A stretch of 64,000 nt of DNA from Yuukianura sp. NJ FZ-2021 (lineage: Eukaryota): contig CM102288.1 in NCBI GenBank assembly GCA_046563655.1, forward strand, positions 5,332,001 to 5,396,000, written 5' to 3'. Each line of letters begins with the position of its first letter. Within the stretch, counting starts at the first letter, position 1. The notes under the pieces are model-generated. The model was not told the DNA's origin, did no database searches, and saw nothing but the letters and a program-made list of their open reading frames with translations. Of the stretch, positions 2,546 through 61,957 are shown piece by piece. A program made the translations under genes and the position numbers.

Positions 2546-4978
2546 ATGAGTTTAATTATACTGTTGGTTTTAAATTTATTACTATTCTTACCTATTAATT
2601 GTGCTTTTGACAATCGGGAGTTAATGGTGGAAAATTTAAATCAATACTTGAACTTTTTCCACGATTGCAGAGTCCATCTCTATTTTGACAACAAGAATGT
2701 CGGTTTAGAGGAACCTTCAATTCCTGTCTACATTGGAAACGTAAGTTCGACTACCAGTCCAACCAGTCTTGACAATTTCTTCACCACTAAAACTCTACAA
2801 AATTGGCACTATGAGTTGTATCTAAACGCCTCCGATTCAACATCTCACTTTTGTGTCATCTATTTCTTTATTCATTACAAAATGAATTGGGCTGGATTCT
2901 TTGGGACGAATGCATTTCAACGAGGCGAATTTCTATTTTTTCCTGGAGCAACAGCTTCCTTTGTTGTTTTCCATGATCCTAAAGTAGAAGAGCCACGAAA
3001 GAATACTGGGGGCAAATATTGGGTAAACTATGAAATTCCATATGCAATTTGTAAGCTACAAGGGAAACTTTTGTACCAAAGAGAGGCTCATCGGCGTTAC
3101 TTTGCTGTAAACAAAATTGTACTTGGTGAATTTCTGAACAGAAGAGATGATGTGTTTCCAATCCCTTTGATTTGCAGATTGGTCCATGATAAACAGAGTT
3201 GCTTACCAAGAAAGCAAATGCTTCATATAACCCTATATAAAAATAGTCAAGGAGAGTTCACACGGTTTGGAGTAGGTGGGAAACGTTGCGGCCCAACCGA
3301 TGTTAACATTACTGATGAAATCGTTACTAAATTTTTTGGTCCTCCGCAAAAGATGGTGATGAATACATTATGGTTGAGCAACTCAATTGATACAACGAGA
3401 ATAGATCATGATGATGTTCATGGATACTCCTTGGACGGAGTCAGTAACTTTGATATCCATCTTCTACTTGACTTGGTTGGTGCCACAATTAGGTGTTTTA
3501 CGGTAATCCATAAAGAAAAATTTACGGACCCACCGAAAAATGGTTCCTATTTTTTAATGCCAATGAATCAACTACTGTTAGACGATGTTATAAGAGTGTT
3601 CGGAATTGCCAGAAGACCAGCATTTGTGGACTACTATTCGTCTTGGCCCAAGATGGTTGTACAAACGGAAATAAACAAAGTGCTATTTGCAACTTGTGAT
3701 GGTGTTCACACTGCATTGTCTTTTGAAATTTATTTGGATCCATTCGACTGGCATATCTGGCTGTTCATGGCTTTTTCTGTCGTCTTAATTCCTACGTCGC
3801 TGGCCGGGATAACACTATTAAAACAACATAAAGCACAACACGTCATAATTTTTGCAAAGTACGTCGAATCTGCACTGCTTACCTTAGTTGACGTAAGTTC
3901 CAGTATTAGTGACAAGGTACTGGAAAAACTACAACTAAAATCCTACCATCGAGTTGTGTTTGGAACATGGCTCATACTGTGCGTTGTGTTGGTCAATGCA
4001 TACAAGGGGCTGTTTACCTCCCAAATGTCTGGGCCACTAAAACCGCAACATACGTACATAAAACCAACAGACCTCGGAGGCTTTTTACTATTTGGAGCAG
4101 GCTCAAAACTATGGCCCGAATTTATGCAAAATATCAAAAACAAGACTGATGTATATATTAACCCAGTGTACTGCGACTGCTTGGATCTTGGCATTCGTGT
4201 CGGCCCAAAGAGGTCGCACGACGATTGTGGTGCTTTGAAAAGAGTTAGAGCTCAATTGGACTACGTCCGCTCGAACTATGTCACAAACACGACAGTAACA
4301 GACGCTTTCTGTCGCCAGCTTCCGCCTGAAGTTGCAGCTGACTATTGGACAATCTTTCAACTGGGTGGGTCTGACGCAAATGCAAAACTAAATTGTACGC
4401 GCAACAGTTGCAAACCGGTGTTTATAAGCTACTTATTCTCTGGCATGGACGAAGAAGATAAAATTTCTAAGTTTGCCGAATGTGATAAGGTTGCAGTTAT
4501 GGATTACAAAGATGACGTTCACTACATTGTAAATAACTTAGTTATAGAGTCCCAGGGCAATAAGTCAGTTCCCAATCAGTTTACCATAGGAAAAGAACCA
4601 GTGGCTTCAACATGGGAGGGGTATGTTCTTGAGCGCCCCTATCCAAAACTTAGACTTGCTCAGTCCAGGATTCTCCAAAGGTTGCAAGCTCTCGTCGAAA
4701 ATGGAATTCAAACGTTTTGGCAAGGGTGGTTTGAGTGTATAACAGAAGCACAAATTAGTACATTGGAAACTAAAGAAACGGCGGCAAAGGTACGGCTGTT
4801 ACCGAAAACGATTACACTGGAAACAAACATTGTGTCCAGTGGTATTGTGTGGGCTGTCGGAGTTGTAGCTGCTATGGTGGTTTTCATTGGTGAGAAGTGC
4901 TCAGTCATGGACTCCCGTACAGTTTGGATGGAGTTTCAGCTATTACTGTGCATTTACAGCTTTAGCCGAAAAAATTAG
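2546..4978 (+). CDS. Divergent intronless ionotropic receptor (IR / variant iGluR family), 810 aa
   Basis: Single ORF with a signal peptide, the pre-M1 motif LDPFDWHIWLFM, the M3-like segment RVVFGTWLILCVVLVNAYKGLFTSQMSGP, the S2 end RLQALVENGIQTFW and a C-terminal TM segment ending VFIGE. This architecture is typical of divergent arthropod IRs. Confidence 0.85.
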   Translation: MSLIILLVLNLLLFLPINCAFDNRELMVENLNQYLNFFHDCRVHLYFDNKNVGLEEPSIPVYIGNVSSTTSPTSLDNFFTTKTLQNWHYELYLNASDSTSHFCVIYFFIHYKMNWAGFFGTNAFQRGEFLFFPGATASFVVFHDPKVEEPRKNTGGKYWVNYEIPYAICKLQGKLLYQREAHRRYFAVNKIVLGEFLNRRDDVFPIPLICRLVHDKQSCLPRKQMLHITLYKNSQGEFTRFGVGGKRCGPTDVNITDEIVTKFFGPPQKMVMNTLWLSNSIDTTRIDHDDVHGYSLDGVSNFDIHLLLDLVGATIRCFTVIHKEKFTDPPKNGSYFLMPMNQLLLDDVIRVFGIARRPAFVDYYSSWPKMVVQTEINKVLFATCDGVHTALSFEIYLDPFDWHIWLFMAFSVVLIPTSLAGITLLKQHKAQHVIIFAKYVESALLTLVDVSSSISDKVLEKLQLKSYHRVVFGTWLILCVVLVNAYKGLFTSQMSGPLKPQHTYIKPTDLGGFLLFGAGSKLWPEFMQNIKNKTDVYINPVYCDCLDLGIRVGPKRSHDDCGALKRVRAQLDYVRSNYVTNTTVTDAFCRQLPPEVAADYWTIFQLGGSDANAKLNCTRNSCKPVFISYLFSGMDEEDKISKFAECDKVAVMDYKDDVHYIVNNLVIESQGNKSVPNQFTIGKEPVASTWEGYVLERPYPKLRLAQSRILQRLQALVENGIQTFWQGWFECITEAQISTLETKETAAKVRLLPKTITLETNIVSSGIVWAVGVVAAMVVFIGEKCSVMDSRTVWMEFQLLLCIYSFSRKN

Positions 4979-5737
4979 TTTTGACTATTGCTGAATAGTT
5001 AGTAAAAGTTTTAGAATAACCACACCATGAAGTATTTTGAACACGTTCCTATTAGTTTAAAAACCAAACTTCCTTTGAATATTTGAAAGTTGGAGACATA
5101 TCCCAACCGGGAACCAAGCTTTCTTTGTAATTTCAGTCGCTTGCAAAACAAAAAATGTTGTCAATGTTTTTTTTTGCCTTAACCAGAATCCTTTAAAAAA
5201 TACTTACAACACCAGCGAACAAAATGCAACCAGAATTTCTCCTAAAAGTTGTGTAAAGGGGAAGTTGAACCAATTGTAATTGTAAATAAAATAAGTTGTG
5301 ATTCCGCTTTCACATTTTGAGAGAGAAAATTAAGACTATTTTTTTTTTGTTACTCAAATTTTTCAGACGATTATAAAGAATTGAAACTGTTACTAAATGA
5401 AGTTGCAACATGGATTTCAACTAAATGTACTTGTAGAAGAATACGCAGGTCTAATTCGATTGAGTTAAGGCAACGCGGAGTAATGTAGTGGCTAAGTCGC
5501 GTGTAACCCCAGTAGGAACAATTTTGGGAAATTTCGCCGGAATGCTCTAGGAAGGTGGGATTTCGCTTTTTTCTATCTTTAGATTTTTCAAATAATTTCT
5601 AATAACTCTAAATTAACCCAATTAAAAACGCGTATATACATCATGTCGTGATTTTTGTTTCACAAAATGTTGGGCGAAATTTATTTGAAAAGTGATTCGA
5701 ACTATTTCCCAAGTAAAAGTCAATTAACGTAAAGTTT

Positions 5738-5747
5738 GGAATTTCCC
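5738..5747 (-). promoter_or_regulatory. NF-kappaB (Rel) binding site GGGAAATTCC upstream of the MiAMP1-like gene
   Basis: The plus strand reads GGAATTTCCC, i.e. GGGAAATTCC on the minus strand, an exact match to GGGRNNYYCC about 90 bp upstream of the TATA box. Near-matches GGGAAATTTC at 5526 and GGGATTTCGC at 5557. Confidence 0.55.
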
Positions 5748-5834
5748 TTAATTAGTTTTTTTAATCGTTTCGTCTGAACCAATTGAACCTAATCTCAATA
5801 TCCGGGTTAATTAGCAGAATCCAGGCTATGTATG

Positions 5835-5841
5835 TATAAAT
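5835..5841 (+). promoter_or_regulatory. TATA box of the MiAMP1-like gene
   Basis: TATAAAT 110 bp upstream of the ATG at 5945. Confidence 0.55.
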
Positions 5842-5944
5842 ACCGTTAAATCTTTCTTTTGCACTAACTTATAAACAAAGTTTACAAAACGCGTATATTA
5901 TTTTTGAGGAGAAAAGTTGCGAATTTTCTGCTTCTCGAAAAATT

Positions 5945-6322
5945 ATGGCCATGCCAACTTTATTGAGCATTTTTGTCGTCGTTTTGGTCTTCGGGGTTAT
6001 TGGTAAAAAAAATGATATTATTCAGACAAAAGTTAAACTTGAAGAGCAATCTACTAAATCGTTTTTTAAAGTTGCAGTAGATGGAAGTCGTTTCGTAGCC
6101 TCGAGCTACAGCAACTTCAGTGGAAGCAAAAGTACAATCACGGCTTGTGGCTGCAGCAGCATTACACGGAGCGGCTCCTACAAATGGACTGCGCAGGGTC
6201 AAACTGGGCGTGTGTACAACCAAGGAAACTGCCAAGGAGTTGCTGATTTTACGTTGGCTTCGGACACAGATACACAACAAGCCTCTGGATTTGGATGGAA
6301 AAGTATATTTATTGTTTGCTAA
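5945..6322 (+). CDS. Secreted antimicrobial peptide of the MiAMP1 (plant beta-barrelin) family, 2 exons
   Basis: Exon 1 (5945-6002) encodes most of a signal peptide. An in-frame phase-1 intron runs 6003-6071, or 6003-6077 with the alternative AG. The 78-aa mature peptide SRFVASSYSNFSGSKSTITACGCSSITRSGSYKWTAQGQTGRVYNQGNCQGVADFTLASDTDTQQASGFGWKSIFIVC carries the MiAMP1 motifs CGCS, GQTxxxYNQxxCxGVA and the terminal FGWKSIFIxC. Confidence 0.9.
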   Translation: MAMPTLLSIFVVVLVFGVIGKKNDIIQTKVKLEEQSTKSFFKVAVDGSRFVASSYSNFSGSKSTITACGCSSITRSGSYKWTAQGQTGRVYNQGNCQGVADFTLASDTDTQQASGFGWKSIFIVC

Positions 6323-7355
6323 CACAACATAAACTAAAGGGTTACTTAAGCTCCGTTACACAAGATAAGTTATCTTAGACTAGGTAACATAACTTAATCT
6401 AGTGAGGTCATGTAGTTACGTGACCTGGCTAAGCTCACTAACTAACTTAACTCACTAACCTAAAATCCAATCACACCAAAACTTGGTCACTTCATTACCA
6501 TCATACAAAAATTTGCTAATAGTGCGCTTCTGAAATTTGGACACAATTAAAATTCTTTCCCTGAAAACCGTTTAGGAAATAATAAGTTGATGCTTCTGAA
6601 ATTTATTTTTCTTAACTTACAATCTCTTTCCTCAAAATTTGTTCTCGTTTTGCAATTTTTTAGTTACATAAGTAAGAAACGATCTGCCAAGAATTCTTCC
6701 GGCTTGTTCCAAATTTGAGAACCGTGCAAAATTTTCCACAAATTTGGTATAAAAATTGTATCCTTTGTGGTACTATAAATCACGTAAACTCAAAATTGTA
6801 ACTTTTGCGCTACATGGTGGATAACCAACACCGGGAAAATGGATACAAATTTCGTGTATTGCAACTTTACCGTGACGTATGTTCATCTAACCAAACGAGG
6901 CAAATGGTTTTGTAATATTATTTTTCAAGTGTTTTAACTTTAAAAAAGCATTGAAAAAAAAATAACATAATGCCCAGAAAAAATTGAAATTTTTAATCCT
7001 TGTGTAAGTGTTTCTTTCGAACTTTTTAATATATGGCCGTTGGCTCGGGCGACCTTCACTGAAATGCGGAACTGAAGCGAGGTCAAGCACTAGTTTTAAC
7101 GCCAGTTCAGAACCGACTTTGAATTAATTACGGAGACAGTGGTGTCGAAATTTTGAAGAATCTGTTGAAAACGGGGTTGAGTGAAGTGGCCCAGTCGTGG
7201 TCAAATTTATCAGGTTGCGGTTAGGAGCTTTCCTGTTTCCAGCAATTTGACTTAATTAACTTCGACTAATTTACAGCCAAAGATTCATCAGGCGATGGAT
7301 TTTAAGTTTCGGAAGCACAAGCACACGCAGTGTCTCTTTGACACTATTTCACATC

Positions 7356-9437
7356 ATGAGTTGGTTCAGTTGCTGCTTGAATTGCTTTTACTGCTTCCGG
7401 AAACGGAGTCGACGCACGCGCAGACTCGATGGAGACAGCCAGCAACAAGCCATGATTCTACAGGAAAATTCAGCTCAGAAAAATTACACTGATTTGGGCA
7501 ATGTTCTTCCTTCCACGTCCAACAAAGGACTTGTAAGTACACAACGTTTTCCTTAAAAAACATTTTTTTGATAGAATTTCAAACGAAAAAATGTTGGTTT
7601 ACTAAATTTGTGCTTAGGAAATCGTGGTTGAGCTAACTATTAATATTACTAAATTGACAGAGTGAAAAGCAATTCTTGGATGGCGTAGAGGGACTAATGG
7701 ACGATGCAGAAAACGTACCAAAAGCTAATTTGGGAAGACTTAAATTCCGCGTAAATTTCAAAATTTTAATGAAATTCCGATTTTAAAAATCTTATAACAC
7801 AATTTAAATTTGGTTTTAATTTCCCAGCTTCAACATGACCCAATTGCCAAGTCACTTTCAGTCTTCGTGCTAGAAGCCGATGGTCTACCAGCTATGGGTA
7901 ATTGCAAAAAAAGTTAATCAAAATTTGTACAGTGTTACAATTTTTTTTTTGAAAAACACGTTTAATGCATATGCAGATCTTGGCGGCACATCTGACCCTT
8001 ACGTTAGAATTTCTCTGCTGCCGGAACGTGAAGGCCAATTGAAAACATTTGAAACTCGAGTTCAACAGAAAACTGTTACTCCATCTTTCAATGAATGTTT
8101 TGTCTTTCCGGTATTCAAAAAAGTCCTAAAATTGAAAGAAAAAAAAATTTCGTCTGTTTTTTGAGTGTTAAAAACTTTGTGTTTTTTTTTTTTGGTAGAA
8201 TGTGCCATTCAGTGAATTGATGAACAAGACGCTGGTATTGGCAATGTTTGACTTTGACCGCTTTTCAAAGCATGATCCCATTGGAGAGCTGCGTATTCCC
8301 CTCTTTTCTGTGGATTTTATCCACCCTGTTGACGAGTGGCGCCCTCTTCAACCCATTGAAGATTCGGATATGCGCGGAAACAAGTTAGGCGAGCTTTGTT
8401 TCTCACTGCGTTACGTCCCCACCTCTGGAAAACTAACAGTCGTCATAATGGAGGCTAAGAATTTAAAGAAGATGGACATGGGCAGCGGCCTTTCGGGTTA
8501 GTTTTTGAAATGGGTATGACACAAACTCCTAGAAAAGGTATTAGTCCGTTCGACCTTGCTGTATTTTTATCACTTATTATGGGAACTATGAACGTCGTTT
8601 TATGAAATATCAATTGAATCATCAATTTTTAACTTCTCGAGACAACTAGATCATAAAAAGTTTGGGGTCAAAGGTCACCTAAGGTCACATAAGTGGTAGT
8701 TTTTAAAGTCCGGTCGCACTGACTCTATCTTCTTATAGGGTTACTTGTGTTATGCCTTTTCTATTAACTTTATATTAAACTATTTCATATTAATTTATTT
8801 GTATTGTAGATCCATTTATCAAGATCTATTTGATGCAAAAAGGGAAGCGTTTGAAGAAAAAGAAAACGACAATTAAAAAACGAACACTCAATCCATACTA
8901 CAATGAGTCATTCACATTCGATGTTCCATTCAAGAACATTCCGGTATACTCCTAAAAACTAAAAACAAATAATACATCAACAAACTTCATTAACATAAAC
9001 AGCATGAGTATAAACACAAAGCTCTTGGCATATATGTTCTAACACACAATGTGACTAATGGAACGATAAAATTCGTTGTTTTACTCGTTTTTTTACCAGT
9101 ATTTGTTTGCTTACTTTTTGCACTTTTAGTGTCACCGTTTCGTGGATTCGTGTGCGCGAAGTGGCTAAAGTGGCTATATCTATTTTGCATTATAAGTGAA
9201 AACCTCCAGCAAAATTTTAGTCGTCAAAATTTTACTTTTTAGGACATTTCTTTGGTGTTGACGGTAATTGACTACGATCGGCTGTCCAAGTCGGATCCAA
9301 TTGGACGTGTTGTGGTGGGTTCGAAGGCGGGAGGACTTGAATTGCGCCATTGGACGGACATGTTAGCATCTCCTAGAAGACCAATTGTTCAGTGGCATAT
9401 TCTGAGAGACCCAGACGATAAGAGAGACGACGATTAA
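7356..9437 (+). CDS. Synaptotagmin-1-like tandem C2A-C2B protein, 7 coding exons
   Basis: Exons 7356-7532, 7661-7750, 7828-7897, 7977-8110, 8199-8497, 8810-8943, 9243-9437 splice in frame. C2[15 protein letters not shown] and [11 protein letters not shown]2[16 protein letters not shown], polybasic [22 protein letters not shown] and C-terminal QWHIL. The start codon is less certain than the rest. Confidence 0.92.
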
Positions 9438-13004: not shown

Positions 13005-14238
13005 ATGGCACAACCTGGAAAAATAAGGGAATTACGATTGGGGACTTATTTGCTGCTGCTCGTTGCTCTGCAAACTGCTGAAACTGTTGCAGAATTTAGT
13101 GGAATTGGCAACTTCCCTCGAGGGAACACACAACCACAAGTCGAAACGGTAAAACACAACAAAGTTAAATGTTGACAAAGTGAATATGAGTTCGATTGAG
13201 CTGTTTTGTAATACTTTTTGTATTTGTTTGAGTAGGATTTTGCTTATTTATATTTATTTTGTTTACGTTTGTCATGATATGTGCTTGTGCTGACTCGTTC
13301 TTATGTTTAGATTTTCAATGCTCAAAAATCTCGACACCTTTTGGATGAAATTCACTTTGATGTTCACAGCGTTTTGAGAGATAGGCATCAGCGAGGCTTG
13401 GAAGACTACAAGGTTAGTAGTTTCCAGTAAAGTAAACTCAAAGGTTTGTTTTTTTTTGTTGAAAAATTTAAAAATTTTGAACTTTATTAACTTTCTTTTT
13501 AAAACAAAAATTCAGGCGTGTAAAACTGAGCATGCAGCGGATACCGGCCTTTCTAAAGTTTCCACTTGCTTGGAAGCTCTGTTTGGCGGAAGTTCGGGTT
13601 CATCCGGGGATCAGCAAACAGCTTCGAACGTTGCAATTGGCTCAGGAACTTACGGTAACCAAAACCCAGTAGGTCAAGGTGTTGGGTACAACGGAATGGG
13701 TCAATTGCCGGGTCAAGGTCTACAGGGTCAATTCCAACAATACCCGTCTCAATTTGGACAACAAGGTCAATACCCGTTTCAGCAGGGTCAGCAAAGTCAA
13801 TACCCGTTTCAGCAGGGTCAGCAAGGCCAATTTCAGCAGTACCCTTACCAACAAGGACAGCAGGGGTCATTCCTGGATCAGCAGTATGGAAACCCAAATT
13901 GGCAGTATGGGCTGCAGGGTGAGGCCAATGGAGGGTACCCGTTTGGAAATAGCGCGGCCAACAATGGAGGGTACCAGTACCCAGGATTCAGCACAATGGG
14001 TCAACAAGGTCAACAACTGACCAATATGGGTCAAGGTCAACTGAGTAATATGAGTCAACAGGGTCAGTTTGGTTCAATGGGCCAATCACCATATCTCTCT
14101 CAGCTGTACAGCAGACTTCCCATTGGCCAGCAGACTGCTGCGCTGGGAGCTGGTACTGGATATCCCAGCAAGAGATCGGTTGTTTCCAAAAGCAAACCCG
14201 TGTACCTCCTGAAGTCAACGAAACCGGTTGTAGTTTGA
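13005..14238 (+). CDS. Secreted Gln/Gly/Tyr-rich low-complexity protein, about 322 aa, 3 exons
   Basis: Exons 13005-13148 (hydrophobic LGTYLLLLVAL), 13311-13412 and 13516-14238 join in phase 0. Repeats QQGQYPF / QQGQQSQYPF, one Cys pair, possible processing sites RHQR and KR. AATAAA at 14521. Confidence 0.75.
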
Positions 14239-22734: not shown

Positions 22735-25036
22735 TTAGCGAGGTTTGACTGACAGAAACAGTTTTCCACCGTCAGGTTTGAAACCGGAAGTTTTCGAATA
22801 CTTCATGGGAATTGGCGTTTTTGCGGTTGGTTCAAGCTGGAAGTTCAAAATTAAGTGTGCAATTGCAGCCTTTGCTTCTGCAAGAGCAAACCTCATGGCG
22901 ATGCAGTTTCTAGGTCCAACACCTAAAATTTTAAACGACAAAACTAACATTAGACTAAAAGTTTTTGATTTTTTTTTAAAACTGAATTTTTGTTTCGAAA
23001 TTTGAATTTTTTGAATGAACTATACCAAATGGCATGTAGGCGTAAGGATTTCGAGCGGCCTTGGCTTCCGCAGAAAATCTTTCCGGGTCAAATTTTTCTG
23101 GGTCAGGATAGTATTCTAAAAAAACAAAATTTAATTAAATTAAAACGTTAATTAATCTAAAAATTCAAGTAAAAGTTAGCTCAAATGTTTGGAAAACTAT
23201 GAACTACCTTATAATTACATTGTCAATTACTGTAATTACTGTAATTACATAATTATAATTACCCGAATCATGATGAATTCCGTAAACTTGGGCTACTACA
23301 GCAACTCCCTTGTCCACAACGACGTCTGAGTTTGGTAGTTTGTAAGGTCGTGCAGTAATCCGTTCTGTTCGGACTCCTGGCGGATACTTGCGCAGTACTT
23401 CTGAAACGACTTTGTCCAAATACTCAATTTGCATAATCAAATCATGATCCAATTTCCCACCGTTGGATTCACTCGCATCACGAATCTCTTCGTACAACTT
23501 CGTCTGAATTTCAGGATGAACTGCTAATTCATACGAAGCAAAAAGCAGTACAGTCTCGACCGTGTCAAATCCAGCAAAGAAAAACAACAAACTTTGGGAC
23601 AAAATAAGATCTTCAGTTAGTTTCACTTTGTTGCTTGATTTTGCGAGTTCTTCCGAAACCATTTCGTCAATTTCCGTCTCTTCTTTGGCTTGTTGATTCT
23701 TCGCTTCAATCATCAACTGCAAAAAGTCATCTCGAATTTCCCCAGTTGCCTCGCGGTGTTTGATTGCTTTTCGAGTAACTTCGGCAAAAAACGTTGTAGA
23801 CTTTTTGTCGCTCACAGAAACTCCAAAATAAGCAAACACTTTGGGAAATAGGAGCATAGCGAACAAAAGGAATATGCGTGGAATTGAAACTGTCTGAAGC
23901 CGTTTGGCCATTTTACAAAACTCGGAGTCCGTTTCTCCAAAATTTTGACTGTCCAATCCAAATGCAGCGGAAGAAATGACATCCAAGGTGTAGCGTGTGA
24001 AAATGTCACGCACTTCTAGTTCTGTTTCCCCTTTCTCAACTTTGTTCTTAATAAATTCCGCCATTTTGTTGGAAGATGAACCGAAAACGTCAAACATTCT
24101 ACGAATTTTCCCAGTAGTGAAAGTTGGACTCATGCTTGACCTAGAAAAAATAAAAACTTTATTAAGGAAGTTGGCTCAAGGTTCCTTGACAACGAAAAGT
24201 TAATTTTGTTTAACAGGTTGGGTATTATCTCGCTTGTTGACAAAAAAAACGGGGAGAAGCAATTTTAGTACCAATCCAAAAAAAAATTGATACCAATTCG
24301 TATGCAAAATTAAAAAAAAAAATTGCTTTATTGGTATGACTATGATGCCTTGAAGTAAAAATGGAAAACTCTTGGCAAAATCGAAAAAACATGAGGTATT
24401 ATCCAACCTGTTAAGGAAAGGTACCAAATCAACAAGCCTTGGAATCGCCTAGCTCAAGGTCACGAGGTCAAAGCTTACAGAGTTCAACTATCCCTACCTA
24501 TTGCTAAAGTTACTAAAAATTGCATTACCTCATATCTTTCCATTCTTGATCTTTGAGGTTGATCAACATTTTGTGAAAAAGTGGATCCGATTTGGAGAAA
24601 TCAAAAAGTTGTCTCCGATTCACAAAGTAGTCAAAATCCTTTACCTTTGCGGTGAAAAAACAAAAGTAAATTAGAAATTTTCAAAAGTTTCGTTTTTCAA
24701 AAAAAAATTTTTTCATTATTTTTTTTTTGTCTAATTTACCATGACGTGCTTGATCATGTCCAAATCCATAATGTAGAGACTTGGACTTCTGAATTCAATG
24801 ACCCCGGCATACGGAAGACCCGTTCGTTTCAATTCATCGTACATCAGTCGTTCAATAATGTGAAACGGATTTTTGAATGTAAGGCGATCATACAATGACA
24901 TGACCGTTGAGTGTTCCAGGAAAAAGATTCCTCGAGATGGCCAGTATTTCCTGTCTCCACCGGAGTACTGCCATAAGGCATACACTGCCCCACCGAGCAG
25001 AGCCACCACAATTAGAACCCACCAGACCCACCACAT
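22735..25036 (-). CDS. Cytochrome P450, CYP3 clan (CYP6/CYP9-like), 5 exons
   Basis: Exons 25036-24740, 24644-24529, 24140-23263, 23115-23026, 22922-22735 splice in frame. N-terminal anchor, [11 protein letters not shown]-helix [14 protein letters not shown]-helix AGFDT, K-helix [13 protein letters not shown] and heme motif [10 protein letters not shown]. Confidence 0.95.
24177..24441. mobile_element. MITE-like element (copy 2) in P450 intron 2
   Basis: CAAGGTTCCTTGACAAC...TTAACAGGTTGGGTATTATCTC at one end and GAGGTATTATCCAACCTGTTAA...AACAAGCCTTG at the other. The interior motif ATTCGTATGCAAAATT is shared with the copy at 35477. Confidence 0.75.
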
Positions 25037-42104: not shown

Positions 42105-45100
42105 ATGAATTTTGCCTTCACCGGCCGAGTCAATGAATTGAGCAGAACAAATGGAAATGGTGAGTGGTGGGCACTACGGATTCATCTCATACATCTCAGC
42201 CTCGTCTTCCTCATTCAGTTGCCGCAGTCTTGCAGTCCGGAAACCAAGTACAGGTAAGTAAATTTAGAATTATGTAACTTATGTTTGATGTAACTTGTGT
42301 TATGTTTGGTATACTTTCTTTATTTTATATCATGTTTTTTTTTGTGAAGAATTGCTTAGAGCTGACATTTTGGGGCGCCGTATCTGTAAAAAAGTGTGTC
42401 TGTTTTCTACGTGTGTGTGAGAGAGATCCGGTGACCTCTGACCTCTCGTGTACTTTTTTTGTTTAGCAGTCGAGTAGTGGAGACAGCTTACGGAAGTCTG
42501 CGTGGGATCATAATTCCAAGGTCAGGGAGCATGCCGAGGGACGTGGAGGCGTATCTGGGGATTCCCTATGCCTCTGCCCCTGCAGCCTCTCTTCGTTTCA
42601 TGCCCCCTCTCACCCCCAGTCACTTTCCGGACATAAGGATTGCAGACAAGTTCGGACCAGCATGTCCACAGCTCCTGCCGGATCTAGCCAACCGAACTCA
42701 CGCTCTTGCCAAAATGCCTTTACTCAAGTATACGCGTCTCCTTGACACGCTGCACCTCCTCTCCAATCAGAGCGAAGACTGTCTCTACCTCAACGTCTAT
42801 CTTCCAAAACCAGGTTAGTCCATACCATTTACTTCACAATTTTGTTCCCACTCTCAAAAAGTTAAAAACTTTCCAACAAAAGGTGTTCAAAATCAAAAGT
42901 TCAACAAATTCTAAATATTTAGTAAAATTTTTAAACTTCTGAATTGACGCGCTTTTAATACGGTGTGAATTTCACTAAAAACTTTTACTCGCGAAATTGG
43001 CCAGTACATGTTTCAATTTTTCATCGCGAGGTGTAATGAGTTGCGAAAAATTTATCTCGGCACGGTTTTGTCGCGAGGAAACAATTCATAAATTTTTTCA
43101 ACCGTCCGTCATGAAAATAACATTCCGTCATGAAAAAATCATTTTGAATTTCAAAATTTTTCAATAATTTTGAAAAGTGGAGTTTGGAGTTCCTGTTTAA
43201 CCTGAAATTTCACTCAGTTTTGCTACCAAATTAATACTGACTGAGAGTCGAGTACTTTAAGTGGTTAAGCTCTTAACTGCGCACAACTCCACGAGTTGTA
43301 TTCCTTGTGCTTTCCCGTTGTCATCACAATTAAGTGGATTCTCTGCTACCTCCGTAGACACAATAGAAGACACAAAAGACACAATTTTCCCGGGCTCATT
43401 TCAATTGGGAACAAGTGGAGCAAAGAAGACTTTAAGTTATGTTAGGTTATGCACCTAACTTGAAGCGAATACTAAAACTAACAATAGACTTTATAGTCAG
43501 TCTGTCGTTCTGGACAGACTCCCCTACTAATGACTGCCAGAAGTGGGAGCCATTCTGTGCAGCTCTGAATGGAAAAGTGGAGAAAGCCACTTTGTCGATG
43601 GAGAAAGTCAAGAGATTTTAATTTCCTGGAGTGTCATAATTACTCCACTCCAAAACAGAACTTTGGTTATTCAAACCTAACCTAACGAAACTCTTTTTTG
43701 AGTTATGGAGTTACTGTGTTTGTAGCAAAAGTTTTCCCGCCGTACCACATTGGCGGGAAAATTTTAAAAAGCAGACTTTTGGAGAGTTTTTGGAGGTCAA
43801 AGGTCATAAATCCCAGAGATGCGAATCAGTCGTGACACTTCGCTTGGACCAAGTTAAAGTTGGAGTTTGGCGCGAACAAAGAGCGAGCGTTAAACGGCAC
43901 TTAAATGTCCCCATTTGTCAACCTGCCACTGACTGAATTTTGCACTGTTGGAATTTGTGCAATTCAGCAAAAATTTGGTGATTTTGGCGGATTTGAGTTC
44001 AGTTCAAAACAATTTGGAAAATGCCAATTTGAAAAATTCTCTTTCCTTTGTATTTCTCTTGTCAAATGCTGCAATTTGGAGAAAGTGACTTACGGTTTTC
44101 AATTCTAAAGAGAAAGTGAATGGAATTGGTTAGGTGCCTAACGTAAAGAATAGACTAGTGAGTCCTGATGGTCTGTACTTCCTTGTGCTGTAAATTGAAG
44201 TTCCTTTGTTAATTTCCATTGGATCACTTCCAATACTACCCTGAATGAAGTTCCTTTGAACAGATTTCTCTTTGAATCCAATGAACAAGAATTAGATGGG
44301 CAGGAATGCCGGGTCTTTCTACACATTCAATTCCTGACATACGCACAATAGAAAAAGAACAGAATATATGGAAGAAAAGACGCAGCAAAAAAAAAAGTTA
44401 AATGCAAAAAGTTTTTTGAATTTAAATGATAAAGTCTGTTTACAAAAGAAGTTTTTATGATTATATGCAGGTTAGTTTAAACTAATTAGTTAATAAACAA
44501 TTAAGTTTAATTTGTTTTCAGATGACCAAAAAGTGAAAGGTCAAGGGTCAAAGTCCCCTGGATTGGCGATTGCAGTGATTCTGCATGGAGATTCCTGGGA
44601 GTGGGGTTCCGGAAGCCTCGTGGACGGATCCGCTTTCGCCAGTCTCGGAAACATTGTGGTTGTTACGCTCAATTATCGATTAGGAATTTTGGGTAAGTTT
44701 CAAAATTTCAAAAGATTTTTACCAAATTGAACTCTAAAAAAGCCACTTCAAAAAATCTTTTTCCTCAAAAAGTTAAGCCATAAGCAATGAAAACTGAGCT
44801 TCACTTTTTACTTTTAATCCGCCGGTCAGCATTTTCAGTTGAAAGAACTTTGCCAACTGTTCACTTTTTACAGCTTTCACTTTCGAGGATTTTTGAACCG
44901 CAGAAAAAGTTTAATTAAAGCGACAGTACAATTTGAATTTTGGTCCATGTCAGCATTTTTCCGGGTTTCTGAATCCTCACTGATTTCATTCAAATTCATG
45001 AAAGACTGATTTTTCCAAATCCTTGCCCCCGCGCTTCAATCTGTTTCTAAACAACAAACTTTGAAACGTGTGTGTCAATTCCTGCGGCAATTCCTTCCCG

Positions 45101-48100: not shown

Positions 48101-51100
48101 TTGTTTTGGAATAAAAGACGGTGGGACGGGACCAACTTTGTCACAAAAGGAGACATGCAACACGGTCGACTTAACAAAATGTCGAAATCAAGTGAGGCGA
48201 AACGGCTTTGTGGCGAGATAACCGAGAATTTAACCACTTGATATTTTACTATGGTGTCTTGCCCTTGAGCTGAATATGATAGTCTGATTCCTTTTTGGCG
48301 TATTTTTAGATATTGCTGCAACTTAATTTTCCGGCCTATGATTATTTTATATTATCATATTTTATTATATCATTATGTGTTATTATTATATTTGTTATTT
48401 GAATTGTATGTAAAACATCATATTCTTTCAGAACTATTTCACCGTGTGATCCTTCTAAGCGGCTCCGCTCTGAGTCCGTGGTCCTTCCAGCGCCATGCAA
48501 AGGGCAACGTACGAAAAATCGCTCAAGCCTTCAAGTGTATCAGTGACCCCTTGATGACCCCGATCCCCGGAGCCCCACCGCCCCTCAGCCCCCCGCGTGC
48601 ACCTCCCTCCAGTGCAAGTGACCTCCGTGACCTTGGACCCTGTCTAAGGGACGTCCCCTTGGACGAACTACTGCGTGTCCTAGATCGAGAGCTGCTCCAT
48701 CCACGGTTCATCGCTCGACTCGGTCCGCTCATAGACTCGACTGTGGTAAAGTCCGACTTTGTGTCCGAAATGAAGTACGATCCAAATGGACACTTTTCGG
48801 GAATCCAGCTTCTGGTGGGCACAGCGTCCATAGAGTCCTTTGAAGAACTGAACACAGAGGACATTGAGGACGGCATGGCGGACCTCAAGAGAGACCGCAT
48901 TCTGCGCACACTCGTCCGCAACATCTTTGTGTTCCATTTGAACGAGATCTACTCCACAGTGAAGAACGAGTACACTGACTGGGAGAAGCCACGCAAAGAT
49001 TTCATTGACGTGCGTGACTCCATTTTGAGCATCATGAGTGACGGACTCACTGTGGCTCCCCTTGTCCAGGTCGCCTCCATGCACTCTGCCAAGGGAAATG
49101 CAAAGACTTACTTTCTCCACTTCCAGTATGAACCTGATCACTCCGTCTATCCTCATGTAAGCAAAATTAAGCCAAGCTCAATCCAAACTTTTCAAATTAC
49201 ATAATTATGTAACTTCAGTCTACATCGGTACATAAGTGTGATGAGTAGCAAAATATACCAGTGGCATACAGAAGGTGCAAATACCGTATTCGCAAAAACC
49301 TTTAACTTCCAAATCCATGAGTCGTTCGATTACATGTTTTTAATATTCGCAATTATCAAGATTACATTTACATTAATATTAACATTTTTGTGCTCTTTGT
49401 TACAGAGAATAGGAAGCATTAGTGAGGATCTGCTTCAGTTTGCTCTGGGACATCCGATTTTGAATGCACAGAGAAAAGAGCCCGGTCTTCCGTCCTACAC
49501 TTCCGGAGATGCCAAGGCTTCCAACACCCTCATTCGCTACTTGACCAACTTTGTTATATCGGGGTAAACAACCTTATTACATAAGCTATTACATAAGTTA
49601 CACCAGTTTTTACATAAATTCAATTACATGAAATGCAAACAAGAAACATTTATGTAAGCTGTGTAGCTAAATGAACAGCAATACATGTATGTGTTTATGT
49701 AATATGCGTGCTGTTGTAACTCGCGGTGCTGGTGTATATGTAATTGCAGCTATTTAAATATTTCTTAAGAAATACATAATTACATAATGATGTAATCATG
49801 TCAAGAGGTCAGTAACCTCTGAGCGTTGAAGTGATACACTGTTATTGACACTTGCAGGGATCCTAACTCAGGGTATGACCAGCACTGGAGCAGTTCCAGT
49901 ACTCCAGGCACGTCCTCCGTTGAGGAGAGCCAACTTCCCTACTGGGACTCTTATGACCCCGTGAACCAACTCTATCTCGAACTTCGTAAGAACATAACCT
50001 CTTCTCACTTCATGTCTCACGAAATACCCGGGTGAAAGGACTGTGCAGGGAAAATACCCGGGTATTCCCACCACTCCCCTTCTATGCCCCAACTTAAGAA
50101 GGCTCAAATGCCTTCAACGAGTTTTATCTCCCGCAGAACTCCATCACTTTAGTCTGGAATGAGCTCAGGCCTTCAGGGCACCACAAACCATAAATTCATA
50201 CATTCTTCTAAAAAAAACAAAAAAAGAAAACGAAAAAAAAAAACGAAAAACTTGCTCAATTTTTTTTTGCCCGAGTTCCTGTGAAATACACCAAACAGCC
50301 ACACTAAAGACACTCAAACTCAAATTTTTCTGTTTCATGTTTCACTCTCCTGATCTGTAAAGCGTCATAATTTATGAAACTTAATTTATAATTCTTATTA
50401 TATAATTTATAAATCAAAATTTTAGTTTTTTTTATGACTTAATCTAATTTGAGGGTTTTACAGTGAAGCTAAACGTAACAGAATAATTTCAGCGTAAAAA
50501 CCGCAGTACGAAAGTAGCGAAAGCAGGGTCAAAAATTTTAGTTACAATATTTTCAAAAAAATCAATTCTTAACCTGACTTAGTATTAGCGTTAGGCTAAA
50601 TCTAAACTGAAATTTTACTCACAGTTTAGTATACCATATAAATTTTAACGTACTTTAAGTTATTTACATAACATTTTGTTTGTTTTTTGTAGCCAACGGA
50701 GATCCCCTGATGCGAAATCACTACCGAGGTCATAAGATGGCTCTCTGGTTGAATCTGATTCCACAGTTGCATCAGTCGGGTGGTCCCGAAGTGACGATGG
50801 TTCATCATAATTTCAAAGAGGAGAAGACAGACTACTACGAAGGTACATTCTCAGCATTTCTTAAGTTAGGTTTTCGTTAGGCTAAGGTTAGGTTATGTTA
50901 GGCTAGACACTTTTGAGCCTGGGAACAACGAAACTCCATTCCAGCACAACTACAGTTCAAGACTTTTTCTCTTTTTATGACCGTGGGACATGACTCGGAT
51001 GACTTGGTCTTGGTGCTGGTACAAAATCTTGTTTACCAAGAGCGTTTAGGAATCCAGACTCGTGTTTCGGTGGCTCCGTTAGGTTTGGTTTGGTGGCTCC

Positions 51101-59900: not shown

Positions 59901-60826
59901 TCCATTGGGGGCAACGTATGGCCAAAATGTCTGGAACTTGGTAAGCTAAGCAGTTAAGATCAGATAGAAGCATTTGTCTGGGTTAAGGTGATGTTAAGAG
60001 ACTTTCTGGAGGAAGCGTTACGTTGCCTAACCTTACTCCAACTGCCTTCAACATTACTGGAACTTTAGGTTTTGGAGAAAGCCACGTTATGTTTGGAACT
60101 GGAACCTAAAAGTCGCCGTTTAACGTAACACAAGGTAGGACCTGGAGAAAAGTTGAGGAAATGACTTTGTGCCTTAAAAGCATTTCACATTCTTCATATC
60201 TCGGGAACATGAGTCTCCCAAATTTTATGAAGTGAGGCATAAATCTCAAATTGTAGCATGATGGTGTGCTGCTGTAGGAGTAGCCGTGGTAGTTCCTGCC
60301 ATGTTAGCACCATTTCCAATGGAGTAATAACCCATTGCCTTGACTTATGGCCCAACATTACTTTCAATGTCATCCTTCCTTTAGGTTGGGTTCCCTTGGC
60401 ATCCCAGCAATTTCCGAGTCAGGGCCCTTAATCCCTCAAGGAATTTTTTAGACTTTCAAAATTCTAATATCCCCCGTCCGGAAATTTTCCTAGAAGATTC
60501 AGGAGCCTGCGTCTGGACATTGTACTTGACAACAGTAACCACATAAACAATAAAAACTTTAGCACGCAATTTTCAATTTTTACTTTGTTCCGACACAAAA
60601 TCAGCACCACTCAAAATTGTAACCATGGCACAAATTCTGTCGTGATTTCAACTTGATTGTTTCGAATTCCACGATTCGACTTAATAGTTTTTTCGAGTCA
60701 AAAATAGCGACAAAAGCTGATTGAGAAAAACTACGCGTGAAAAGAACAAACGCTTGCGTTCGTAACTTGAAGTCAACTTTGCGCACGACCTCAGTTGACC
60801 TTGACATCGAATTGTCTATATCCAAT

Positions 60827-61957
60827 ATGGCATCGGACTCCAATGACCAAATGGACACCACACCAATACAACAAGATGACATTTTGGAGCCATCAATTAG
60901 TCGCAACACTCTGCTCACCCAATACTATAGAGTGGGCATCATCAACTCTCAAAATCAAATCAGCCACTTCGAGGTAATTGACACGAGCATGGACGGGAAC
61001 TGTCTCTACCGCGCAGTCTCACAGGCACTCTTTGGTCACCAGGATGCTCATGAGCGCATTCGGGAGGAAGTTGGTAAGATTCCTGTTTCACTTTTTTACA
61101 TTTTGTCTTAACTGTGTCTGTCCGATTTCTGATTCCTGGCGAATAGTCAACCACATTTTGGAACCCGCGAACTGGCCAACCTTTGTAAACGACATTGCTG
61201 CCCAAAGCGAAGACTATGAACGAGCGGATCGACGACCTCGGGAAGGAGACGACGCTGAATCTGAGGACGATGTGCTGAAGCGTCGCTACGGAACGTACAT
61301 GCACCGCCTCGGGGAATGCGGAACCTTCGTGGAGATGATCGCTGCCAGCGATTTGTTCCAATTCAATCCAGTTGTACTTCGGATGATGGACAATCAAGTG
61401 TACAACATTCTGCCAATGAGAGAGCCGCGAAGGCCAGTCACTTTCCATTTCTTCTTCTCTGGAGTTGGCTCCGATTCGGGTCATTTTGAAAATCTGAAGC
61501 CAGTTTCTCCTGATCCGTATTTCAAATTTCAAATTTGTAGCATTTGGAATTCTATGATCAAACATTTTTTTTTTGATTTGTTGGTGTTCTTTTTTTGAAC
61601 TAGTTGTTAAAAAATTGGTTTCTAGAAATACCGAGCTTGTGACCTTTGACATTGAAAGCGGATTTTACAGTTTAGTGACTATTGACGACCACGGCGTCGT
61701 TATCCGACGACAACCATCGGCTCCTCCTGATCAAGCGTAACCAAAAATACTTTTTTGCTTTAATGCATTTCGTTTAATTAATTAACTAATTGCAAATTCA
61801 ATTTAAAAATTAATTAATTAATTTAATATAATTTTGACCTTAATTTTTTGTTTGTAGAGGAGATGGATCTCAGGCGAACAGAATTCGGCCTCGCTGTGGA
61901 AAAATTTTGAAAAGCAGAGTTACAGAAAAAGTTAAGAAAGGCAGAAAGAAGAAATAA
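60827..61957 (+). CDS. OTU-domain cysteine protease (deubiquitinase-like), 4 exons
   Basis: Exons 60827-61073, 61147-61516, 61671-61736, 61858-61957 splice in frame. Cys loop MDGNCLYRAVSQALFG, variable loop CGTFVEMIAASDLF, His loop SGHFENL and basic C-terminus KKGRKKK. The last two exons are less certain. Confidence 0.85.

Follow-up and report, generated by a model that had tools for sequence, protein, structure and literature searches.

How does a gene for an antimicrobial peptide of the MiAMP1 family come to lie among the genes of an animal? The question is raised by positions 5945-6322 of a 64-kb window, the whole stretch of DNA that was analyzed (64,000 nucleotides of contig CM102288.1, assembly GCA_046563655.1, from Yuukianura sp. 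NJ FZ-2021). The original prediction for this locus was a plant-type MiAMP1 gene that had been acquired horizontally by a soil arthropod. The horizontal part has stood as the best reading, none of 20 organism-named relatives being animal; the plant-type label has not. The results point to a genuine MiAMP1-family gene that reached a probable springtail by horizontal acquisition, with a probability of about three in four (0.75). The reading follows from the family membership of the peptide, the animal genes around it, the host-like features of the gene, and the absence of any named animal relative.

The peptide is a member of the MiAMP1 family. As the original prediction anticipated, the profile hidden Markov model (HMM) of Pfam PF09117 (MiAMP1) matches, at 57.4 bits (cut-off 26, E 1.7e-15) over positions 9-76 of its 76. 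In a phmmer search of the PDB sequences, Macadamia MiAMP1 (1c01) came up at E 2e-11, with no other sequence below E 0.3. The motifs that were said to be common with Macadamia MiAMP1, CGCSxI, GQT, YNQxxCxGVA and FGWKSIFI, are all visible in the HMMER alignment to 1c01. In an alignment of 49 family members, every invariant or near-invariant residue is kept in the window domain (C23, G24, Y34, G40, Q41, W73, S75, I78 and C80). C23 is invariant and C80 nearly invariant, and with both present they probably form the core disulfide that corresponds to Cys21-Cys76 of MiAMP1. An NCBIfam search assigned 0 families to three proteins, though NCBI calls the bacterial relatives "MiAMP1 family antimicrobial peptide".

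The AlphaFold2 model, computed with the alignment of 49 members, has a mean predicted local distance difference score (pLDDT) of 96.8, a predicted template modeling score (pTM) of 0.84 and eight strands. The predicted fold is a Greek-key β-barrel of the MiAMP1 type. The top Foldseek match in the PDB, and the only one at E<=0.001, is 1c01, which superimposes with template modeling (TM) scores of 0.86/0.90 and an rmsd (root-mean-square deviation) of 1.3 Å over 77 columns with 38% identity. Weaker matches are β-gamma-crystallins, spherulin 3a and similar proteins, the crystallin resemblance having TM 0.5-0.72 and E 0.03-0.1. Membership in the β-gamma-crystallins was considered and rejected: the Crystall (PF00030) HMM gives no match even at E<=10, and the likeness is at the level of the fold only.

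The + strand has an open frame that extends from 5840 up to a TAA stop (6320-6322), and its first in-frame ATG is at 5945. The features of the gene are the following.

5835..5840, + strand: TATAAA motif about 105 nt before the ATG, from a pattern scan; a candidate core promoter only
5870, + strand: second TATAAA, from the pattern scan; a motif match only
5945..6002, + strand: exon 1, 58 nt, ending in codon phase 1, with the start codon and a signal-peptide-like hydrophobic N-terminus
6003..6077, + strand: candidate GT-AG intron, 75 nt, or 69 nt with the alternative acceptor at 6071; sequence-based
6078..6322, + strand: exon 2, with the last part of the signal-type leader, then the MiAMP1 domain and the stop codon TAA (6320-6322)
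6546..6551, + strand: ATTAAA, the sole polyadenylation-signal-like hexamer up to 580 nt 3' of the stop, from the pattern scan; a motif match only

The predicted coordinates, mature length of 78 aa and Cys positions all agree with the sequence. The MiAMP1 domain (protein P0002) consists of 80 aa encoded by 6080-6319 and has four Cys. If the precursor is cleaved before the Ser of "SRFVA", the mature peptide has 78 aa with Cys at 21, 23, 49 and 78. By inspection, the first 19 codons of exon 1 encode a short polar start and then about 15 hydrophobic residues. This leader aligns with the signal peptides of the homologues, which end right before a conserved xFVAY; inspection and alignment are in keeping with the predicted signal-type leader.

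After the donor GT of the candidate intron at 6003-6004 come A-rich sequence, a run of T and two AG acceptors (6071 and 6077). Removal of 69 nt or of 75 nt preserves the frame. Because the intron is itself in frame and stop-free, the leader is kept whether or not the intron is removed. The full precursors of the homologues have no residues between the signal peptide and the mature domain (A1 alignment). Rfam has no match in the window.

As predicted, the gene is embedded among animal genes. Two of these are open frames of some length:

2546-4975, + strand: intron-less open reading frame (ORF) of 810 aa, upstream of the gene; no Pfam match at E<=0.01
23204-24175, - strand: cytochrome P450 exon of 323 aa, of the CYP3 clan (CYP6/CYP9-like)

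Downstream lie synaptotagmin-type C2-domain exons (7874-8164, 8199-8501 and 9243-9437, by Pfam). The gene is 970 nt from the 810-aa ORF and about 1.5 kb from the synaptotagmin exons, and the GC content is even over the 64 kb (0.33-0.44). An ionotropic receptor and a synaptotagmin had been named as the flanking genes. The C2 exons confirm the second. The first is no more than plausible, the Lig_chan match of the 810-aa ORF (residues 402-495, E 0.02) being sub-threshold at 15.2 bits against a cut-off of 30.8. A word-index search of 5.8 billion protein clusters, covering lengths of 445-1418 aa, found only two distant relatives of this ORF, with 26-29% identity. It is possibly a very divergent, lineage-specific gene of ionotropic-receptor-like type.

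The P450 exon indicates what kind of animal the host is. It has 306 relatives, and of the first 13 matches with an organism name, 11 are Collembola and two are insects. The best named match is Allacma fusca, with up to 45% identity; others are Orchesella dallaii and O. cincta. Since these relatives are mostly springtails, the host is a hexapod, most likely a springtail whose own proteins are absent from the protein collection. Metagenome proteins are up to 60% identical to the exon, and close relatives of the host are therefore present in environmental data.

The gene has the character of its surroundings. GC at third codon positions (GC3) is 0.45 in the MiAMP1 domain versus 0.27-0.61 in four host exons, whereas it is 0.94-0.99 in three actinobacterial homologues; a raw actinobacterial fragment is thus ruled out. 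The candidate intron has a GC content of 0.25 versus 0.43-0.48 in the exons. Two neighboring synaptotagmin introns of 79 and 88 nt are AT-rich and of GT-AG type, with T-runs before the AG, and the short candidate intron is in the same style, as had been noticed at first. Judged from the sequence, both composition and candidate intron style match the host, and a composition so fully host-like would imply long residence. A codon measure of the codon adaptation index type was discarded, as off-frame controls gave equal scores.

Four public sequencing runs hold the stretch, three of them from one sample that is possibly the source of the assembly. Run X1 has unitigs at 4148-5428, 5864-6707 and 6738-7863, and the tilings in X2 and X3 are similar. 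Word depth is alike for the contigs of the gene and those of the flanking animal genes (34/40/42 in X1; 188/241/193/204/235 in X2).

Two further features were seen in the reads. The segment 5375-5475 (within 5300-5560) is a multi-copy element: in each of the four runs its word depth is 5 to 10 times higher, and numerous different loose ends occur at 5375/5377 and 5475/5483. The window has no second copy of the 5300-5560 repeat. The element is located some 470 nt 5' of the gene and is probably a dispersed repeat of small size, similar to a miniature inverted-repeat transposable element. Run X2 also has a contig of low depth (36, where the main form has about 200) in which 6322 is linked to 7047, and 7072 in turn to 7174. 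With just 26 letters on the short side, it falls short of the 31 required for counting; the contig might represent a deletion allele or else a related repeat.

The relatives of the peptide are found outside the animals. HMMER searches of 1.84 billion protein representatives returned 55 proteins at E<=1e-3, 13 of them at E<=1e-10. None is identical or near-identical, the best having 58% identity. Thirty of the 55 were looked up and 20 of these carry an organism name: 10 plants (three Stephania, two Papaver, two Cryptomeria, Anthurium, Pinus monticola and Macleaya), 5 fungi (Basidiobolus ranarum with three paralogues, and four Mortierella) and 5 actinobacteria (two Streptosporangiaceae, Herbidospora, Embleya and Streptomyces pini). 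None of the 20 is animal, even though the collection searched includes annotated proteomes of springtails and insects. Another close relative, P0004 (49-50% identity), is on a 53.8-kb ENA contig and has a eukaryotic-looking leader.

A scan of prokaryotes with one genome per species matched 128 stretches, 89 of which encode relatives. The 80 loci that were kept are all Actinomycetota by title, with identity up to 58-59%, and belong to genera such as Nonomuraea, Herbidospora, Microbispora, Streptosporangium, Sphaerisporangium, Streptomyces, Actinomadura and Actinoallomurus. In a scan of JGI (Joint Genome Institute) metagenomes, one of 10 matched stretches was a relative, on a high-GC actinobacterial contig (L001), and no springtail-like locus was found. 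The actinobacterial occurrence agrees with what the text of PMC9903846 describes for the PF09117 family. The family, which the original prediction took to be known mainly from plants, is thus common in soil Actinomycetota and also occurs in Basidiobolus and Mortierella.

A word-index search with the mature peptide gave no candidate that shares three 5-residue words, a blank taken here as a miss of the tool. P0003 and many actinobacterial proteins do share several 5-residue words with the peptide (for example GWKSIFIVC), so that a blank from this index does not mean absence for short peptides. In the full text of the literature, PDF and preprint supplements aside, no report of a MiAMP1-family gene in an animal was found.

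The cysteines distinguish the window peptide from its plant relatives. The disulfides of MiAMP1 are given as Cys11-Cys65, Cys21-Cys76 and Cys23-Cys49 in the text of bioRxiv 10.1101/127746, citing McManus et al. 1999. Cysteines were tallied in 61 rows aligned on the 80 columns of the window domain: nine rows have six Cys, 13 (the window included) have four, 37 have two, and 2 have other patterns. The six-Cys rows are the canonical plants, whose loop is two residues shorter. Four Cys are found in the window, Basidiobolus, Mortierella, the ENA protein, Stephania and the Embleya / S. pini group, and two Cys in the main actinobacterial forms. The 80 prokaryote loci gave 77 proteins, 76 of them with two Cys and one with three, and the CGC motif is absent from all; the extraction pattern yielded no ORF for three loci (L063, L071 and L078). 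The window peptide is without both Cys11-Cys65 partners, a pattern common to 12 other rows. Because both partners of one bridge are gone, and because this is shared with fungi, the pattern is a coherent variant and not random decay. By its cysteines the peptide falls outside the canonical six-Cys plant subfamily, having only four Cys with both partners of that bridge gone. Long hits with multiple stretches (P0015, P0044 and P0046, with 1136, 1238 and 599 aa) were excluded from all alignments.

Two trees were built. In the first (63 rows), the window is part of a basal polytomy that also contains Basidiobolus, two Stephania proteins and the ENA protein; it is outside both the canonical plant clade (support 92/92) and the main actinobacterial clade (84/84). 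For the second, 11 fragments or near-duplicates were removed and nine prokaryote loci were added, leaving 61 rows; here the window pairs with Basidiobolus and is outside the plant-containing clade (93/88). Resolution is poor because there are only 80 columns. A constraint that places the window with the ten canonical plant rows lowers the log-likelihood by 18.6 units (approximately unbiased (AU) test, p 0.082), and one that places it with the 37 two-Cys rows lowers it by 9.5 (AU p 0.255); neither placement is rejected. The phylogeny, which had been proposed as a check, does not decide between these placements. The label plant-type is not borne out as first given; the peptide is a four-Cys, long-loop form outside the canonical plant clade, with the qualification that the test does not reject a plant placement.

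Stephania cephalantha has three MiAMP1-family genes (P0005, P0006 and P0054) close together on one 50-Mb contig. Two of these Stephania proteins have the long loop and a full or partial four-Cys pattern, the C-terminal Cys of P0005 being lost by a frame change near the end. Rather than joining the canonical plant clade, these two fall together with the window, Basidiobolus and the ENA protein. Either plants have a second subfamily, or a further transfer took place.

Several observations weigh against horizontal acquisition by a springtail as the explanation. First, no contig listed in the four runs bridges the gene to a neighboring gene; the unitigs break at the 5375-5475 repeat and at variant sites. 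Second, the three best runs are perhaps from the sample that was the source of the assembly and therefore give no independent support. Third, the absence from animals rests on protein representatives, 30 of 55 being looked up, and small genes are easily left unannotated in animal genomes. Fourth, P0004 could be eukaryotic. Fifth, the pairing of the window with Basidiobolus has a support of only 92/52, and as the AU tests reject neither the plant nor the actinobacterial placement, no single donor is picked out. Sixth, the candidate intron, being in frame and stop-free, could be read through. Finally, the peptide is only mildly cationic, with a net charge of +2 and a pI of 8.5.

The alternative that survives best is that the horizontal insertion is real but silent or decaying, which is unlikely. 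The gene is single-copy within the window and, in the 580 nt scanned 3' of the stop, has the ATTAAA at 6546 but no canonical AATAAA; both would suit a silent insertion. The frame, however, is intact with its start, hydrophobic leader and stop, all the family-invariant residues are kept, the composition is fully host-like, and the missing Cys are both partners of one bridge, as in the 12 other rows. In addition, a run from a second study, of another coded organism, holds 5981-6324 including the intron with 5 differences in 344 and no gaps, whereas the downstream 2.4-kb contig of that study has 138 differences and 66 gaps. The lower divergence of the gene stretch hints at constraint, a weak comparison between single low-depth contigs.

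Vertical descent is less probable still. It would make the MiAMP1-like peptides an old eukaryotic or animal family, a secreted branch akin to β-gamma-crystallins, that has been overlooked in animals. Small secreted peptides are indeed frequently unannotated, the fold is common to animal crystallins at TM 0.65-0.72, and the ESM Atlas has an arthropod secreted-protein cluster, 25% of it with Crystall, at a low score of 0.80, which is a lead only. But the Pfam match is to MiAMP1 and not to Crystall, the identity to fungal and actinobacterial members is 56-58%, and the named relatives include no animal in a collection with springtail and insect proteomes. Nor do the supplements of the Folsomia and Orchesella genome papers, one Orchesella file excepted, mention MiAMP1 or PF09117.

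The least probable, and very unlikely, is contamination or a chimeric assembly, in which a fungal, plant or bacterial fragment was misjoined into an animal contig: the lack of a listed contig that physically joins the gene to a flanking gene and the possible source-sample origin of the best-covering runs would fit, but against it stand the short distances to the 810-aa host ORF and the synaptotagmin exons in a window of uniform GC, a GC3 far from that of the actinobacterial homologues, a candidate intron with the length and make-up of its neighbors, unitigs that tile 4148-7863 almost completely at similar depth within X1 and within X2, and the lack of any near-identical protein among the representatives.

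Horizontal acquisition thus remains the preferred reading, with a soil microbe as the source from which the gene would have entered the animal lineage. Early-diverging fungi of the Basidiobolus/Mortierella kind and actinobacteria are the two main candidates. An early-diverging fungus is the best guess for the donor, in view of the identity, the path lengths, the pattern of cysteines and the length of the loop. An actinobacterium comes second, because the mid-peptide QGVA.FTLAS bears a striking resemblance to that of the Streptomyces and Nonomuraea forms. A canonical plant appears the least likely, and a plant donor in general would be less likely than a soil microbe. The gene would then have taken on the base composition of the host and come to carry, in the part that encodes the leader, a short intron of host style.

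The precursor would enter the secretory pathway, and a peptide of about 78-80 residues would be secreted after the leader is cut near the Gly-Ser before the conserved xFVA, where the leaders of the homologues end. Its barrel may be locked by two disulfides, the equivalents of Cys21-Cys76 and Cys23-Cys49 of MiAMP1. The secreted peptide might act outside cells on fungi, and perhaps on oomycetes and Gram-positive bacteria, by binding a cell-wall component such as β-1,3-glucan, in analogy with pine Sp-AMP3. According to the text of bioRxiv 10.1101/127746, MiAMP1 and Sp-AMP3 are antifungal (citing primary work), and Sp-AMP3 binds β-1,3-glucan and deforms hyphae. A PF09117 protein from Streptosporangium becharense inhibited yeast, as described in the text of PMC9903846. 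By analogy with these, and given a functional gene, an extracellular antifungal role would be the most likely one for a litter or soil animal, at somewhat better than even odds.

A broader and more tentative picture is given slightly less than even odds. The gene would encode the first animal MiAMP1-family peptide, captured by a springtail lineage from a soil microbe, provided with a host intron and promoter, and secreted as an innate antifungal effector. The patchy range of the family in plants, early-diverging fungi, Actinomycetota and a hexapod would reflect repeated transfers between kingdoms within the soil community, disulfides being lost or gained step by step (6, 4 and 2 Cys). What is new is the animal host kingdom; the family, and the horizontal acquisition of antimicrobial functions by springtails, were known already.

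If the gene is expressed and the peptide active, the MiAMP1 family would extend to animals, and a peptide effector would be added to a horizontally acquired antimicrobial toolkit of springtails, known to date for β-lactam biosynthesis genes. It would also be a small, easily made protein with which to probe how a soil animal copes with fungi. The series of six, four and two Cys (in plants, in fungi and this animal, and in actinobacteria) amounts to a natural experiment on the number of disulfides that the barrel needs, and the view of MiAMP1 as an essentially plant family is corrected.

The window has other open frames. A fragment at 265-735 resembles the amiloride-sensitive channel family, just below threshold (23.1 versus 23.6 bits). 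The open frame at 13378-14238 (+ strand) encodes 286 aa with Gln/Gly/Tyr repeats (QQGQ..YPFQQGQ) and has no Pfam match; it could be the exon of a low-complexity structural or cuticle-like protein. By eye only, the frames at 42435-42818 and 48269-49204 (+ strand) resemble exons of carboxylesterase/neuroligin type, and the one at 60725-61111 (+ strand) has a "DGNCLYRA" stretch typical of OTU-type (ovarian tumor) cysteine proteases.

Among known systems, the plant peptides share the Pfam family and the Greek-key barrel with the window peptide. These are Macadamia integrifolia MiAMP1 (1c01), the pine Sp-AMPs and the anti-microbial protein of Pinus monticola. The predicted precursor is laid out alike, with a signal-type leader followed by a domain of about 76-80 aa. 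Unlike plant MiAMP1, the window peptide has four Cys instead of six, a loop before the last strands that is two residues longer, and an animal host. It ends in ...IVC like the fungal and actinobacterial forms, whereas the Macadamia peptide ends in ...IQC.

The nearest named relatives by path length on both trees are those of Basidiobolus and Mortierella. The hypothetical proteins K7432_014793, K7432_014792 and K7432_016621 of Basidiobolus ranarum have 56-58% identity to the window peptide. The four-Cys pattern, the loop length and the C-terminal GWKSIFIVC are shared, and the precursors consist of a signal peptide and the domain, 98 aa in all. The Basidiobolus proteins differ in being fungal, and their function is uncharacterized; in UniRef they carry the label "Lactococcin 972 family bacteriocin". 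The actinobacterial proteins called "MiAMP1 family antimicrobial peptide" (from Streptosporangiaceae, Streptomyces and others) also come from soil organisms and share with the window peptide the long loop, GSYKW..GQ.GR.YN, QGVA.FTLAS and the C-terminus. In contrast to the window gene, they mostly have two Cys, lack CGC and introns, and have a GC3 of 0.94-0.99.

Events of the same kind have been described in arthropods. The text of PMC10051947 presents the β-lactam biosynthesis genes of springtails as a horizontally acquired antimicrobial function, and the abstract of PMC7807722 does so for antibacterial enzymes of ladybirds. The springtail antimicrobial peptide families surveyed in PMC10051947 include diapausin, Alo, defensin, cecropin and diptericin; a term search of its main text found neither "Macadamia" nor "crystallin". 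In each case, as these sources describe it, a microbial antimicrobial function was captured by a soil or predatory arthropod. The springtail and ladybird acquisitions are enzymes or pathways, whereas the window gene would provide a disulfide-stabilized peptide.

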